DNA of 63,034 nucleotides, counting the filler, from Diploschistes diacapsis (Eukaryota), in NCBI GenBank assembly GCA_023645945.1. It is 11 parts of 11 records of this genome, joined end to end, with 100 filler letters (N's around TTAATTAATTAA, not from the genome) between each part and the next. Parts side by side here need not be neighbours in the genome. Positions count along the whole stretch, not along the records: positions 29,966 to 33,566 come from JALAIB010001882.1; 10 more parts are not named here. One strand, written 5' to 3'. Shown in pieces: positions 1 to 33,666 of this stretch. The first letter of the stretch is position 1, and each line of letters opens with the position of its first letter. Made by a program: the position numbers and the translations under genes. The notes beneath the pieces are model-generated. The model saw only the letters and a list, made by a program, of their open reading frames with translations. It was not told the origin of the DNA and did no database searches.

Positions 1-1006
1 CCATTACCCCAAGCCCATGCCCATGGGCCCTTCTCCAAAACGAAACCCATCCCCCCTCTATACACCCAAGTCAGGCACCCAACTACCCTCATTGGACCGG
101 TTTAATCAAGTCGGCAAGGCCACACCCCGAGACCATACCCCCACGGCGCTGCAGGACAAGCATTGTCGTCGCATATATATATACGCGGGGTGAAGCATGC
201 ATGGCCCGAAACCGCAGCGGGCAGCGGCAGCGGCTGTGAAGGATATGAGGCTGGGAATACGAATTCCATGGCTAGCTTTTATGGATGAGGGAGGGGGGTT
301 GGGAGAGCGATTGGGAAGTGGAAGGCTAAAAGGGGTGAGGGAGAAGGGAGAAGGGAGAAGAGATTAGGTTGGGAGGAGGAAGAAAGGAGGGCGAGGACTA
401 CGAGGAGCGTGCGACTGATGTCTGAACTATTGATTGATTGATGGATGAATGGGTGGATGGGTGGGTGGGATTCTGTGCAACGTACTGAGGTGAGGTTGTG
501 TGATGTGGTTTCTACGGTCTGCCTGCAAAAATGGTTTTATCATAATCTGGACAGGGAGCGGCATGTTGATTAAGAAAGAAGGAAGAAGCTAACTCGGGAA
601 GGAGGATGGTTTGCGGTTGGAGAAGTAGCGGTGGTGTTGTGCCTGGCTGGATGGAATCGACATGGGTTGTGGCTGATGCGGTTACGATTAAGCTGCTGTG
701 TGTGTATGCGTGAACTTGAAGAGGAAGTGCCATGATACGGGCTACCTTTGAAAAACGTGTAATAATCACAGCAAGCGCGTATAGCTCTAGCGCCCGTCTA
801 CTACGCGATACCCTAACCTGTTCGCTTCGCTTCGGTCGTGTCTTCAAACATGGCTCGGACATCGTCCGCCGCTTTCTTCAGCTGTTCCTTCGAGTCTGTC
901 GCCCTGTGCTCTCCGTGTCCCCAGATTGAGAAGATGGCGCTACGGAATCTAGGTCAGTTTCGTTTGTACATACAGCTAGGAGAGAGGAAAGCCATGGTCC
1001 CTTGAC

Positions 1007-1520
1007 TTACCGATCGTAGTGACGGTAACATGCAAGCTGAAGGATTGAATTCACGCCATGCTTGGGCGAGCACTTGTGCAAGCGCCAAAAGCTGCTACCA
1101 CGGCCTGAGATCCTGGGGGCGTTAAAAGTGAACTTGAGCATATGATCCAGCATCCAGTTCTGAATAAAGTTAATCCTGCTGTCTAGTATAGCATCTGTGG
1201 AAACCGAGAGCTCCTGAAATCCAGTTCCTATGGAGCTAAGGTCCACTTTGGAGAGGGCCATGAGGCTTAGAAACCTCCTCGCGAGCGGCGGGAGCGATGA
1301 AATCTCGTAAAGGTGTCATGGTCAAGCCCTCAAGCCGAGTGTGTTCAATCACGGATGCCGCCGATGTGCGTACCAACGGTCTAACCCCTTATCGCTAAAG
1401 TGGAAGGCATGATCCTTTGGCGAAGCATCGTCCAAACAAATCACAGACGTTGCCGCTTCAATGACTTCTATATTAACCTTATTTTCGGCATGGATCGAAG
1501 TCAGGCACTGGTGATACTAA
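1007..1520 (-). pseudogene. Choline/carnitine acyltransferase-family gene fragment, frameshifted and 5'-truncated
   Basis: Manual minus-strand translation gives ENKVNIEVIEAATSVICLDDASP..HFSDKGLDRWY, then (other frame) SAASVIEHTRLEG, then GVNSILQLACYRHY. These match the ICLDD / NRWxDK / EHxxxDG / QLAxxR landmarks of carnitine acyltransferases. Boundaries approximate. Confidence 0.65.
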
Positions 1521-26158: not shown

Positions 26159-26258
26159 NNNNNNNNNNNNNNNNNNNNNNNNNNNNNNNNNNNNNNNNNN
26201 NNTTAATTAATTAANNNNNNNNNNNNNNNNNNNNNNNNNNNNNNNNNNNNNNNNNNNN
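26159..26258. other. Artificial contig linker (N44-TTAATTAATTAA-N44); identical linkers at 29866, 33567, 37261, 40952, 44642, 48332, 52020, 55702 and 59374
   Basis: Ten identical 100-nt blocks whose central 12-mer places stop codons in all six frames. Confidence 0.98.
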
Positions 26259-27373: not shown

Positions 27374-29865
27374 ATGCCAGGTAGGTTTACGTTTATTATA
27401 AAGCTTCATTATCATTCATTCTCCTGTGCTAAGTATTCCCAGCCTTTAGAGTATCATTGGCTGCAACCGCAAGGAGTCGACTCGATCGTCTTCGAGGACA
27501 TCTGCCACCACCCAACTTCATCGTTCTCCACTATGCCTACTTCATCGGCACTTGCCTCATCGCAGCCATCGTATTCTGGGGCGCATCGACTCCTGCGCGG
27601 AGCATCAGCTTCACGGACTCACTCTTCCTCGCCGTTTCCGCAATGACCGAAGCCGGTCTTAACACCGTCAACCTATCTCAGTTGAACACCTTCCAACAAT
27701 TTATCCTCTTCCTCATGATTATGCTCGGATCTAGCGTGCTAGTGTCCTCGGCTACCGTGATAGTCCGCAAGCGCGCATTCGAAAAAAGATTTACGAATAT
27801 AGTGGAGGACCAACGGGAGAAGAGATTGGCGCGCAGCGGGACCGGCGGCCTGTCGTTCGTGCGGAGCTTCGCAAGGTGGCAGCAGGCGACCCAGCCAAGA
27901 GACGAACCTAGTGTCGACGGAGTAGTCAGGAGGGGCAAGGCTCTCCAAGGATCGGGCCAGATAGCGCAAGTTCTCTCGCCATCTTACAATCCCGGAGACC
28001 ATCCTCGACCCGAGGTGGAGCGGGAAGGCGATTCTCCAGCGGCCATGGTAAAAGACGAGGAGGATGTAGATCAATTCTCCGGATCACGTCCATCCGCCGA
28101 ACATATGAACGGTGACATTGGAGGGGCTTCAGTACGTTTGCGTGGCGGCAACGGCCATCAAGGCAGTGGCGGAAGCCCCGTCAGTCCACGGCCCTTCACC
28201 ATCCGATTCGCCGAGAATGAGTCGCTGGCGCGCAGACGGCATTCGCGAGTACTGTCCATGTCGGGAGTCGGTGCGCGGCCTGATCTCCGCAACCACCCCA
28301 AAGACGCTCAAGAGCAAGACAACGGTCTGCAATCGGCCCGTCCGATCGCTGATGCGGGAGACCACCGCCGGGGTACGGCAAAACACTACTTGACTGGAGG
28401 CTTCATTGGGCGTAATTCTCAATTCTATTCTCTGTCGCCCGCCGAAAGAGAAAGGCTAGGAGGAGTGGAATACCGTGCACTCGAATTATTAGAAGTGATC
28501 GTCCCTTTGTATTTTGTCACGTGGCAACTTCTTGGTTGCATTGGATGTGCAGCTTGGGTAGCAATGAATGCAGCAGAAACTGCACTGCAGAACGGGCTGA
28601 ATCCATGGTGCATACTGCAACACCCTTCCTAATGCAAGCGGTTGATTGTCTACAGGTGGGTTGGAGCCTTCAACGCCGTCTCTGCGTTCAACAACTCGGG
28701 CATGAGTCTGCTCGATGCAAACATGGTAGGAAATATCAACCCTAACCTCCTGGCTATGCTGAACGGTTTCTCAAGGTTGCTTTTCAAACTTCCTACTACA
28801 TGCTCATTACAATGGGCCTTATGATTCTCGCCGGAAACACATGGTAACAAAACTTCCAAAGCATACCGGAGCGTTTCTTACTATCGCAGTTACCCAATCT
28901 TCCTCCGCCTGATAATCTGGACCCTCTGGCGCATTCTGCCTGATAACGAACACTTTCACGAAACCCGGGTCGCCGTGCGCTTCCTCCTCGACCATCCGCG
29001 CCGCTGCTACACCACCCTCTTCCCTTCGTACCATACATGGTTCCTCGTTGGCGCCGTCATTGCACTCAATGGCATCGACTGGTTCGCGTTCGAAGTGTTG
29101 AACATTGGCAACGTCTATACCGCGACCCTCCCCACCAACACGCGGGTCATCGACGGTCTGTTCCAAGCGCTCGCCGTACGCTCTGGGGGATTCTATGTTG
29201 TTCCCATTGCCAACCTGGCTATCGGGCTGCAGGTACTGTATGTGCTGATGATGTACATCTCCGTCTACCCCATTACGATCTCCATGCGGCATTCCAACGT
29301 CTACGAGGAACGGTCCCTGGGCATCTACGCCGATGAATCAGATAGCGCGCAGCCTTCGGATCAGCCCGATCCTTCAAGCCTGCACCAACCAACTACCCCA
29401 GCAACCGTCGCGGAGGAAACGAAAACCGTCGTCGGCACGCTGAAAAGACATCTCACCAACCAGACGCTCTACAAGGAAACCGGCTCTCCCTCCCGCTCCT
29501 ACTTCATCCGCCAACAACTCCGCTCGCAGCTCGCGCACGACCTGTGGTGGATCTGCCTCGCCGTCCTCTTCATCACCATTGTCGAAGGCTCCTCCTTCGC
29601 CGCGGACCCGGTCTCCTACTCGGTCTTCAACATCGTCTTTGAGGTAGTATCGGCGTACGGCACCGTGGGGATATCGGTGGGTCTGCCGAACGTGGCGTAC
29701 TCGTTCTGTGGAGGCTGGCACGTGCTGAGCAAGTTGATTCTGTGTGCGGTCATGTTGCGGGGGAGGCACAGGGGGTTGCCGGTCGCGATTGACAGGGCGG
29801 TGTTGTTGCCCGGGGAGCATTTGGCGAGGGCGGAGGAGGAGGATGCCAGGTTGAGGGGGGAGAAG
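27374..29865 (+). CDS. Trk-family (TrkH-like) potassium/cation transporter, spliced, extreme 3' end cut
   Basis: NFIVLHYAYFI, SFTDSLFLAVSAMTEAGLNTVNL, IGRNSQFYSL..ERLGGVEYRAL, SAFNNSGMSLLD, LDHPRRCYT, FQALAVRSGGF, FEVVSAYGTVGISVG, RGRHRGLPVAIDRAVLLP. Confidence 0.93.
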
Positions 29866-30155
29866 NNNNNNNNNNNNNNNNNNNNNNNNNNNNNNNNNNN
29901 NNNNNNNNNTTAATTAATTAANNNNNNNNNNNNNNNNNNNNNNNNNNNNNNNNNNNNNNNNNNNNATAAACGCTCTTAAAGTTCTTTATAAAGCTTTAAA
30001 TTTCCGATTTGGCACATTGCTGGGGAAGATGTTTGGGTACAAAGTTGATCGATTTTGGTGAGATATGGGGGGGACCTAACTACTTTTGGCACCTGACTGT
30101 ATATAGCGAAACCACACCTGCACTATACCATGTGCTACGTACTGCGTACGATGTA

Positions 30156-30916
30156 TCAAAGACCTTCGCTGCCTGATACCATCCCATACTTCCTCCCTAC
30201 GGTGGTAAGCAGTCTGGCATAAGTCACCTCTGTCTCACTGCTCGATTCGACCTAATTCTGTCAGAAGGTTTCCGGTACACGGGAGATGTGTTTGCAAACC
30301 ACTTCTAATGTTCCTGCCACTTGATAAAAGTGTAGAATATCTGGATTCTCCCTCTCGAATTCCTCGAATCGCTTTGCAAACATCTTTTCGTCATCAAGAA
30401 GTCTACCTGGTAACTTGCGGCTTAAGTAACGCTGCCGAGCCTTCTCTTGGGGGCATTGGAAGAAGATGACAAGAGTAGGAGTCCCAACCTGCAGCATCTT
30501 AGGCTGCTGAGCTGAGTTGACTTGGAGAGGATCGAACCTGCTCTTGAAACTCGATCCCTTGCGCCAACTGTCTGGGAAATCCGTCAATCAGAAAGTGGTG
30601 ATGGCCTTTCTCCTTCTCCTCCTCTACTTTTTTGGACAATATCGGTAGTATGACTGGCGTGGGCAACAAATTTCCTTCCCGTAAATAGTCCTGTATGATT
30701 GCTTGATCGTCGAACCTCGAACTCTGGCTCAATTCTCTCATGTAGTCACCAACAGAGAGGTGGAAAAATCCATAGTCCTGTGAAAGCTTGTGGCAGATTG
30801 TTCCTTTCCCTGACCCAGGCGCCCCTACCGCTTCGTTAAGGCCAGCTCCCTTAGCATTGTCATCAGCACCTACCAAGAACAAACACAATGGAGGATGCAC
30901 TACTTGAACTAGCCAT
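30156..30916 (-). CDS. UMP-CMP kinase / adenylate-kinase-family nucleoside monophosphate kinase (divergent paralogue), 4 exons, 204 aa
   Basis: Exons 30916-30874, 30824-30538, 30488-30300 and 30251-30156, with three 48-49-nt GT..AG introns, splice in frame. Motifs IVFVLGAPGSGKGT (P-loop), FFHLSVGDYMR, FLIDGFPR, and a short LID region GRLLDDEKMFAKRF. Confidence 0.92.
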
Positions 30917-31237
30917 CTCAGTTTGTCAAATGATCATCGCAATTTGTCGCTAGCAACCCCAGGAAGAAGCGTCGAGCAGTTTGGCACATGAATACTGTAA
31001 ACGAGCGGGGAATTTTGTTCAATGCATTAACCCCTCGTTTGCTTTTTGGGCATGCATGCCTCGTTTCTTAACGGGAAGCTGTGGCAGATTGCTCGCATAC
31101 GACCTTCATTGTTCACTGTGGCAAGCTTCTACCTTCTAGAGACTCTGTATAGGTGCGGCCGGCGCTATCCTATCCTTATTCAACTTCTTTGCCCAGACGT
31201 TCTTAAGCCAGCAAACTGGGTTCAGCCTGCAATCAAT

Positions 31238-32248
31238 ATGGTCCTTGCACATTATCTGGCAGGAACGGCAGCAGTTTTGATTACTCTAGTAATTGCGATT
31301 GGCCTCGTGTTGACAAGTCGATGCCTTCTTCGTCGGGCTTCTGCTAGGCCCAGGTCGAATATTCCTGTATCGGTCAACTATCATTTCACACGCCAATGTA
31401 ACAAAACCTGTGGATTCTGCTTCCACACCGCAACGACCTCGTTTAAGCTACCAGCAGCCAGTGCAAAACGTGGCCTGGCTTTGCTTAAAGCTGCCGGTAT
31501 GAGGAAGATCAACTTTGCGGGCGGCGAACCCTTCCTCTACAAGCCGCTTCTGGGAACCCTAGTCGCCTTTTGCAAAGACCAACTAGGCCTCGAGTCTGTC
31601 TCAATCGTCACAAATGGCAGCCTTGTCGATGAAAGATTTTTGAGGCAGCATGGCAAACACATCGACATCTTAGCCGTTTCTTGTGATTCCTTCAACGAGC
31701 AGACAAACATCGACATCGGAAGAGGCAGTGGAGACCAGATCAAGAAATTGTTTCAGGTAGCAGAGTGGTGTAAGGAGTTCGGAATCAAGTTCAAACTCAA
31801 CACAGTCGTATGTCGCCTTAACCACGCGGAAGATATGAATGGGATCATTGAGCAGCTTCGACCATTTCGGTGGAAATGCTTTCAAGTTCTCCTCGTCGCT
31901 GGAGAGAACGACTCGGACAAGACCCTTCGGAATGTCCGCAAATTCCAGATTACAGATGATGAATACCGAGGATTCTGTCTACGGCACCAGCACCAGCCGT
32001 GTTTTGTTCCGGAACCGAACAATCTCATGGCAAAATCTTATCTGATTCTAGATGAATATATGCGATTCTTGGATAGGGATGGACGGAGGCCTTCCTCGTC
32101 GGTATTAGAGGTTGGTGTGTCCGCAGCGCTCGCCCAAGTCTACTGGGACCAGGACAGTTTTATAGAAAGAGGCGGTATCTATGACTGGAGCAAAGTCCCG
32201 GTCAGCACTGCATGTGCAACCAACGACGACAAGAGATTGCAATGGTGA
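31238..32248 (+). CDS. RSAD2: Viperin (RSAD2-like radical SAM antiviral ddhNTP synthase), intronless, 336 aa
   Basis: ATG at 31238 starts a hydrophobic N-terminal helix. SVNYHFTRQCNKTCGFCFHTA (CxxxCxxC at 31397-31420), KINFAGGEPFL, SIVTNGSL, DILAVSCDSF, FKLNTVV, RWKCFQVL, EPNNLMAKSYLILDEYMRFLD, RGGIYDW and a terminal Trp (LQW). Confidence 0.96.
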   Translation: MVLAHYLAGTAAVLITLVIAIGLVLTSRCLLRRASARPRSNIPVSVNYHFTRQCNKTCGFCFHTATTSFKLPAASAKRGLALLKAAGMRKINFAGGEPFLYKPLLGTLVAFCKDQLGLESVSIVTNGSLVDERFLRQHGKHIDILAVSCDSFNEQTNIDIGRGSGDQIKKLFQVAEWCKEFGIKFKLNTVVCRLNHAEDMNGIIEQLRPFRWKCFQVLLVAGENDSDKTLRNVRKFQITDDEYRGFCLRHQHQPCFVPEPNNLMAKSYLILDEYMRFLDRDGRRPSSSVLEVGVSAALAQVYWDQDSFIERGGIYDWSKVPVSTACATNDDKRLQW

Positions 32249-33666
32249 GATTGTACGATCGTTATGGGAATGATTCTGTTACACTGTACACGGAGATGGA
32301 GTTCGGAAGGATTAGGAACCGGGTGAAAAACAATCGAGCTCAAGGAGGATGCAGTCACGATAAGAACATAGTATGAATACCAAGCTATGAGTTACTCGTG
32401 GCTCGCATAGAAGAAGTTCTTTTCCATATCGAGTTGACTATATATGTACTGGTACGCAGTCGGTATCGACACATGGGGCTCGGACCTATCTGCCATCATT
32501 CCCGCCGTTCTGCATACAGCCAGCATGAAAGATTTTCAGCTGCTGCACTTTGCCCAGGCCTCCTTCCGTTGTTTATTTTCCATGCTTCAACTGGCGGCGA
32601 CCTTATGTTCAGGGGTTTTTGTATTTTTGATGAGACGAATGTCGTTCTTGGACGATGACGATTTGGCGCCATAGCCTCGAACTATGCATTCTGTTCCATC
32701 TGCGGCTTTAAAAGCATTTCGATAACAAACATCTCTCCTCGCTTCCAGAACCGAGACACGCGCAAGGCCAGCTTTCAGCATCTTGTAGAGTTGCCGATTT
32801 GCATCCTCGTCGGACACACGCGTCGTGTCATTCGACTCAGGAGTGTGTTAACTGTAGAGGTGGAGTGGGGCTACGTATCCCATACGAATACCTTCTCACT
32901 CCAAGTTATCTTACAGTCCATCCACCCGAAGGACAATAACAAGTGCGCGTATAGAGTTTCTAGGTGCCACGAAGAATTTCACATGGTGTGAAGTATTTAA
33001 CAGTGTAAGAATGGGAGGATCGAACAGGGAACACACCAGATGGGCGGAAGACGGGATCTTCTCTCATGCCATCAAGACTCGATATTTACCGATTGCTCTG
33101 TGCGTCTGCATGCAGTCCCCGGCATCAGTATGTACCATAGGCTAGCAACTGACCATATGCAATCCAGCTAGTCAAGCAGGTTAACTATGGGCCCCTTGAA
33201 TCCAAGCGATACTTCGCCCCCCTAATAACGTCTTTCACCACAAAACGGGTTACACCACAAAGCGGGTTACTCATTAATATCTTGTGTCTGGTGACACATG
33301 ATGTCACCCTCCAAGTTCCTAAGCGAAGTAAAAATTTTTAAATGAATTAAACTTAAAAACTGGGTAAGTTTATTGGGGGGTGCACCCCCAAGCCCCTGCC
33401 TTTTTTTATTATTGGGGATTGCATCCCCAAACACCTGCTTCATAATTGAAGCTTAAAAAATTCGCTAAATTATTACCCGTTACACCCCCAAATTCCTGCT
33501 TTTTAAATTTATTATTTTAAAGTTTAAAAATAATAAATATGAAAAATATTTGGCAACGTAATAGATNNNNNNNNNNNNNNNNNNNNNNNNNNNNNNNNNN
33601 NNNNNNNNNNTTAATTAATTAANNNNNNNNNNNNNNNNNNNNNNNNNNNNNNNNNNNNNNNNNNNN

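Follow-up and report, generated by a model that had tools for sequence, protein, structure and literature searches.

A 63-kb stretch of DNA (63,034 nucleotides; hereafter the window) from the lichen-forming ascomycete Diploschistes diacapsis was analyzed around a viperin gene and the nucleoside monophosphate (NMP) kinase gene beside it. The window strings contigs together, and each junction consists of 44 N, the stop linker TTAATTAATTAA, and another 44 N; features on separate pieces are therefore not physically linked. The junctions lie at 26159-26258, 29866-29965, 33567-33666, and seven more sites, and the pieces past the first 26 kb are about 3.6 kb each. Both genes lie wholly inside one linker-bounded contig, 29966..33566 (3601 bp). 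The viperin gene occupies 31238..32248 on the plus strand and encodes a putative radical S-adenosylmethionine (SAM) enzyme of the family that synthesizes 3'-deoxy-3',4'-didehydro-nucleoside triphosphates (ddhNTPs). The kinase gene, which is CMPK1/URA6-like, occupies 30156..30916 on the minus strand. The two start codons diverge from a spacer of 321 bp (30917..31237), and the pair is compact, spanning about 2.1 kb with the spacer included. The initial annotation had described an intact viperin and a four-exon kinase diverging from a 321-bp spacer within one contig, and the gene models and profile matches obtained here agree with that description.

The viperin gene is a single exon that runs from an ATG at 31238 to a TGA at 32248 and encodes 336 residues. 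Its predicted product matches the Pfam family Radical_SAM (PF04055, 2e-16) and scores 243 bits on the NCBIfam viperin model NF038283, above its cut-off of 180; on TIGR04278, it scores 380 bits and falls under the cut-off of 450. The best solved relatives are the Trichoderma virens structures 6b4c and 7n7i, which match residues 40-336 at E 2e-137; mouse viperin 5vsl comes next (E 4e-99). The protein is 69% identical to the T. virens protein P0069, and its nearest database protein stands at 92% identity. Named relatives at 62-71% identity come from Onygenales and from lichen-forming Lecanoromycetes, such as Xylographa. The translation contains the radical-SAM cluster motif CNKTCGFC (CxxxCxxC, residues 54-61, with Cys54, Cys58, and Cys61; 31397..31420, plus strand), which aligns with the same motif of 6b4c, and a C-terminal Trp is present. 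The CxxxCxxC motif, the Arg of an FLDR motif, and the C-terminal Trp are common to this protein and T. virens viperin (6B4C, 7N7I). The two differ in the N-terminal 39 and the last ~15 residues. Together, these features identify the predicted product as a viperin.

A hydrophobic stretch at the N-terminus of the translation, at about residues 7-25 (31256..31312, plus strand), is likely a membrane anchor. N-terminal transmembrane tails have been reported for fungal viperins by Shomar et al. (2023, bioRxiv 10.1101/2023.09.13.557418); what is attributed to that preprint, here and below, comes from excerpts of it. The C-terminus reads Leu-Gln-Trp (32240-32248), compared with Leu-Glu-Trp in T. virens. 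According to a preprint abstract, [LIM]-[DES]-[WF] is a C-terminal signal for the cytosolic Fe-S assembly machinery, and the middle Gln found here is outside the [DES] of that reported signal. Among the viperin relatives, the gene model of an Alternaria panax viperin (P0085, 405 residues) carries a C-terminal extension of ~90 residues annotated as PF13521 (AAA_28); it is either a fusion or the result of merging with a neighboring gene.

The residue at the base-selecting position of the pocket was located by alignment to 7n7i and by motif positions. Arg280, which lies in the FLDR motif of the beta-8 loop (32075..32077, plus strand), is the equivalent of Arg257 of T. virens viperin; the corresponding Arg is at chain position 279 of 7n7i, which is Arg257 if the construct has a 22-residue tag, an inferred offset. 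Excerpts of Shomar et al. (2023, bioRxiv 10.1101/2023.09.13.557418) state that Arg257 selects uracil and that the T. virens enzyme and one Aspergillus viperin yield mainly ddhUTP in Escherichia coli. The dipeptide DR occupies the pocket position in 104 of the 120 viperin relatives listed. In vertebrate viperin, which is selective for cytidine triphosphate (CTP), the pocket has Cys/Lys, whereas the viperin of this contig has Arg. The predicted enzyme thus carries a pocket residue of the type associated with uridine triphosphate (UTP). One metagenome locus with a different, CTP-type pocket, L028, encodes a viperin with Cys at this position (FLDC...KK), and its upstream region holds a thymidylate-kinase-like PF02223 gene and a CYTH gene (L028:3426-4397 and L028:4889-6007, both on the minus strand), in contrast to the ADK-type partner seen at the fungal loci.

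The kinase gene is modeled as four exons with an in-frame coding sequence of 615 nt for 204 residues, all on the minus strand. Exon 1 (30874..30916) extends from Met1 to the first base of codon 15. Exon 2 (30538..30824) encodes, according to profile matches and alignment, the P-loop GAPGSGKGT, the NMP-binding segment HLSVGDYMR, and LIDGFPR. Exon 3 (30300..30488) encodes the LID segment RYLSRKLPGRLLDDE...KRF, which falls on TIGR01359 profile positions 107-162. Exon 4 (30156..30251) supplies the C-terminal VESSSETEVTY motif common to the linked kinases, followed by the stop codon. The motifs quoted in the initial annotation, VFVLGAPGSGKGT, HLSVGD, and LIDGFPR, are all found in this model. The predicted introns are 49, 49, and 48 bp long, all of them GT..AG, and the spliced model aligns end to end, across all three junctions, with spliced NCBI models of relatives. 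Exon 2 by itself matches the Pfam family ADK (PF00406) at 2e-23; among solved structures, it is closest to yeast uridylate kinase, 1uky (2e-20). Scored separately on TIGR01359, the model of the UMP-CMP kinase family (UMP and CMP, uridine and cytidine monophosphate), exons 2 and 3 match successive stretches of the profile, with 87 and 31 bits. A word-indexed search with exon 2 returned only three proteins, all of them gene calls that read through an intron. An exhaustive search of representatives with the same exon was swamped by proteins with multiple adenylate kinase domains, and only the single-domain matches were useful.

Neither exon 2 nor exon 3 matches the thymidylate kinase domain PF02223 at E<=0.01, so the kinase is not CMPK2-like, and a CMPK2-type identity was rejected. 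The earlier assignment of the kinase to the CMPK1/URA6 type rather than the thymidylate-kinase/CMPK2 type is therefore borne out by the PF00406 match and the missing PF02223 match. The linked kinase shares its fold, P-loop, NMP-binding, and LID catalytic residues with yeast URA6 and human CMPK1 (TIGR01359). When it is aligned to the canonical enzymes, the P-loop Lys, the GDxxR Arg, the DGFPR Arg, the three LID Arg residues, and the Asp-Asp are all retained.

Divergent linkage of the two genes was surveyed in 73 metagenome loci with viperin relatives, which were searched with the kinase of this contig and five of its relatives. An ADK-type kinase occurs in 19 of the 73 loci, each time upstream of the viperin and on the other strand. 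When the survey is confined to loci with at least 1000 bp of upstream sequence, 17 of 39 have a divergent kinase. Of these 39 loci, 17 are fungal-type, defined by a viperin that shares 53% or more identity across 150 residues or more; the divergent kinase is found in 15 of them, a count that includes the near-duplicates L002/L004, L010/L011, and L030/L031. The other 20 kinase-less loci with this much upstream sequence, which are outside these 17 fungal-type loci, hold viperins that are multi-exon and animal-like, a group of pseudogenes, or viperins that are more distant, L028 being one of the last. Named genomes give the same picture: in Polytolypa hystricis, the kinase is AJ80_08404 and the viperin AJ80_08405, and the kinase-viperin pair of Trapelia coarctata likewise has consecutive locus tags, MMC30_005229 and MMC30_005230. 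The arrangement of viperin and kinase is far beyond chance.

Decayed viperins were found in five related metagenome contigs (L047, L048, L049, L050, and L072; for example, L049:6001-6818). They show frame breaks, stops, an internal deletion, and replacement of the first cluster Cys. The kinase is absent upstream in all four of these loci that have more than 1 kb of upstream sequence; L048 has only 92 bp. At another locus, L022, a gene for an RNase_T family DEDDh exonuclease (131-1168, plus strand; PF00929, 2.5e-17) immediately precedes, on the same strand, a viperin (1675-2547) of 52% identity. This gene is reminiscent of the antiviral exonucleases of the ISG20 type.

The 321-bp spacer is presumed to be a shared bidirectional promoter. 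Counts of k-mers over 16 kinase-viperin spacers gave no convincing promoter motif: the best 7-mer occurs in 8 of the 16 spacers against a shuffle maximum of 7, and the best 8-mer in 5 of the 16 against a shuffle maximum of 5.

The relationship of the linked kinases to housekeeping uridylate kinases was examined through profile scores, identities, and a tree. The curated cut-off of TIGR01359 is 207.6 bits. Full-length linked kinases all fall under it, with 125 bits for Polytolypa, 121 for the lichen fungus Toensbergia, and 82 for Trapelia, whereas a canonical URA6-like fungal protein (P0266, Orbilia/Drechslerella) scores 240 bits and another canonical eukaryotic protein (P0260) scores 227. The kinase of this contig shares 37-48% identity with linked kinases, compared with 31-34% for canonical fungal uridylate kinases. 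A maximum-likelihood tree built from 55 rows has a single branch that parts 16 linked from 17 canonical UMP-CMP kinases, with 96 ultrafast bootstrap (UFBoot) and 81 SH-like approximate likelihood-ratio (SH-aLRT) support. The 16 linked rows are the kinase of this contig, those of 12 loci, and three named proteins; the Polytolypa and Trapelia proteins were taken as linked from their locus tags, and the third, from Aspergillus sclerotioniger, was counted as linked on indirect grounds. Of 200 bootstrap trees, 98% need just one change between the linked and canonical labels. The kinase of this contig groups with that of locus L001 and the Toensbergia protein (95/89). Because proteins from Aspergillus and Onygenales occur on both sides of the dividing branch, the linked and canonical groups are paralogous.

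Judged by its sequence, the kinase is not a canonical URA6 but belongs to a viperin-linked clade separate from the housekeeping uridylate kinases, which fits independent recruitment. The initial annotation had proposed that the kinase was recruited independently, and had suggested a linkage count and a kinase tree as ways to look into this. The scores and the tree, with linked and canonical rows split by one branch, and the divergent kinase in 15 of 17 fungal-type loci all favor that proposal.

Two further proteins were noted in this comparison. P0281 of Elasticomyces elasticus bears the source name 'bifunctional uridylate/adenylate kinase' and sits in the viperin-linked clade; automatic names do not part the two groups. 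P0267 of Blastomyces percursus (402 residues) is an HD-domain protein, named '5'-deoxynucleotidase' in UniRef, with a fused UMP-CMP kinase domain that scores 181 bits on TIGR01359; it is odd to find a nucleotidase joined to a kinase in this way.

In the vertebrate pair RSAD2-CMPK2, too, an antiviral viperin has as its neighbor a pyrimidine NMP kinase that supplies it, and this pair is also divergently arranged. The partners differ in kind: in the excerpts of Shomar et al., CMPK2 is thymidylate-kinase-like, whereas the fungal partner is ADK/CMPK1-like. Prokaryotic viperins (pVips) resemble the present system in that a ddhNTP synthase is genetically linked to a nucleotide kinase, and the viperin of this contig passes NF038283. 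According to the same excerpts, however, the pVip loci are operons or islands, mostly with promiscuous Asn pockets and with kinases that are CMPK2-related or unclassified.

The closest precedent is the fungal system described by Shomar et al. in 'Viperin immunity evolved across the tree of life through serial innovations on a conserved scaffold' (2023, bioRxiv 10.1101/2023.09.13.557418). In the passages available, a nucleotide kinase lies at most three genes away in 70% of fungal and metazoan viperin genes, and viperin-adjacent kinases are mostly CMPK2-related. The NMP kinases linked to fungal viperins are described there as CMPK1-type, of distinct origin and convergent with CMPK2, and are tied to the UTP preference of fungal viperins. 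That fungal module likewise combines a UTP-type pocket residue, an adjacent kinase of the adenylate kinase fold, and an N-terminal hydrophobic tail. As far as these passages go, the pair on this contig is no different in kind and has a lichen source. The novelty of the fungal pairing implied in the initial annotation therefore does not hold; the pair is an ordinary further member of the known fungal module of viperin and CMPK1-type kinase.

Three of our observations were not met in the available passages of that preprint: the conserved head-to-head orientation, the single fast-evolving kinase clade under the family cut-off, and the occurrence of the kinase beside Lys-pocket viperins. The locus adds a lichen-fungus example of the recruitment by fungi of a CMPK1-type kinase in place of the CMPK2 that animals use. 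It is of value as confirmation and as experimental material, with a kinase whose score, motifs, and place in the tree set it clearly apart from housekeeping URA6.

The reading we favor, to which we give a probability of about three in four, is that a membrane-anchored viperin acts together with a dedicated, fast-evolving UMP-CMP kinase paralogue that raises its supply of pyrimidine triphosphates in this lichen-forming, Lecanoromycete-like ascomycete. The anchored viperin would most likely produce the chain terminator 3'-deoxy-3',4'-didehydro-UTP (ddhUTP) from UTP, with some CTP perhaps used as well, and we infer that its product would be put to antiviral use in the fungus. The neighboring kinase would most likely phosphorylate UMP and CMP to the diphosphates. 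Both genes would be expressed from the common 321-bp spacer, and this putative co-regulation would provide more uridine diphosphate (UDP), and hence more UTP, for the viperin. By analogy, the kinase may play the part that CMPK2 plays beside vertebrate RSAD2.

Several observations weigh against this reading. Two of the 17 fungal-type loci lack the kinase; the upstream gene encodes a 2-oxoglutarate-Fe(II) (2OG-Fe(II)) oxygenase in L012 and is dynamin-like in L037. The kinase is also found beside Lys-pocket viperins of more distant lineages (FLDK in L013, L014, and L038; FLNK in L030/L031). The tie to UTP preference is therefore not strict, and the CMPK1-type partner is not confined to the Arg pocket class. 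The linked kinases have long branches in the tree, and long-branch attraction could inflate their unity. Compared with URA6 and CMPK1, the linked clade is changed beside the P-loop, where GKGTQ becomes GKGT(I/L), and at the NMP site, where HLSAGD becomes HLSVGD and IVP becomes LLP, and its LID loop is remodeled. The substrate of the kinase cannot be predicted from sequence. In addition, among the papers that a literature search listed, none examines the action of a fungal viperin on a mycovirus or, more generally, what such a viperin does in a fungus. Papers on T. virens viperin brought nothing further on the kinase.

Because the linked clade as a whole is changed at the P-loop Gln, in the NMP site, and in the LID, the specificity of the kinase may have shifted. 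It might, for example, rephosphorylate the ddh analogues of UMP and UDP (ddhUMP and ddhUDP) and so recycle the terminator, with its divergence reflecting a conflict with viral antagonists; we regard this as unlikely, although several measures of divergence point toward it. Median identity is 38% among eight linked kinases, all from Pezizomycotina, versus 54% among seven canonical kinases that range from chytrids to ascomycetes, and the long branches of the linked kinases are end branches. Between this contig and L001, the kinases are 47% identical but the viperins 69%. However, a duplicate under relaxed constraint could evolve just as fast. Every catalytic residue is conserved, and the activity to be expected by default is therefore that of an ordinary UMP/CMP kinase. 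In a broader form of this proposal, which we hold just as tentatively, the linked kinases would be a dedicated, fast-evolving clade with a changed job, either the phosphorylation of ddhUMP and ddhUDP or the channeling of UMP to ddhUTP at the membrane of the viperin, and their divergence would stem from an arms race with mycovirus antagonists. If that were so, the pair would be a self-contained two-enzyme antiviral pathway rather than a viperin with a borrowed housekeeping activity.

A purpose other than antiviral defense is improbable. The pair could make a ddh-nucleoside antimetabolite against competing lichen microbes, or it could control the transcription or translation of the fungus itself under stress. 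Such a purpose would accord with the outcome of the literature search on mycoviruses, with the pseudogenized viperin copies described above, and with the patchy distribution of viperin in fungi reported in excerpts of Shomar et al. (bioRxiv 10.1101/2023.09.13.557418). Against it, the same excerpts give antiviral chain termination as the sole established role of the viperin family, from bacteria to humans. The contig has no transporter or tailoring gene, and the predicted N-terminal membrane anchor is like that of the vertebrate antiviral form.

Last, that the kinase is a housekeeping URA6 merely adjoining viperin in this lineage was rejected as highly improbable: although its best solved match is yeast URA6 and two canonical URA6 queries found no match beyond the linked kinase across the 63-kb window, its identity is higher to linked than to canonical kinases, its relatives score far under the TIGR01359 cut-off, the two clades are separate and paralogous, and the linkage is conserved across distant fungi.

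The surroundings of the pair are repetitive. An identical contig of 3137 bp, corresponding to 30076-33212, is present in a public sequencing run (X1) labeled 'lichen metagenome'. In that run, summed contig depth marks a high-copy repeat at the left end of the contig (29970..30100), and a high-copy, AT-rich repeat is marked by summed contig depth at the right end (33210..33450); these repeat ends reach depths in the thousands, versus 72.5 in the unique part. Raised depth at the contig ends was seen in two runs from different studies, with many loose ends there. The contig is short because both of its ends are high-copy repeats. In the rest of the contig DNA, none of nine open reading frames matches a Pfam family, and comparison with the 73 loci by tblastx and blastn showed no conserved flank, apart from two weak, short matches.

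A second public run, X2, contains a near-identical copy of the region 31130-32650 (5 differences in 741 bases) and a second copy that is about 86% identical. Over X2 as a whole, 316 places are changed, of which 189 are C>T and 97 are G>A. The second copy could be a duplicate mutated in the manner of repeat-induced point mutation (RIP) or a diverged relative. Of 15 listed C>T sites in X2, seven are CpT, five CpA, and three CpC; because the context is mixed, the variant has no clear CpA signature. The contig's own copy has no RIP-like dinucleotide bias. On the preceding contig of the window, an open frame of at least 347 residues (28825-29865, plus strand) runs into the linker.

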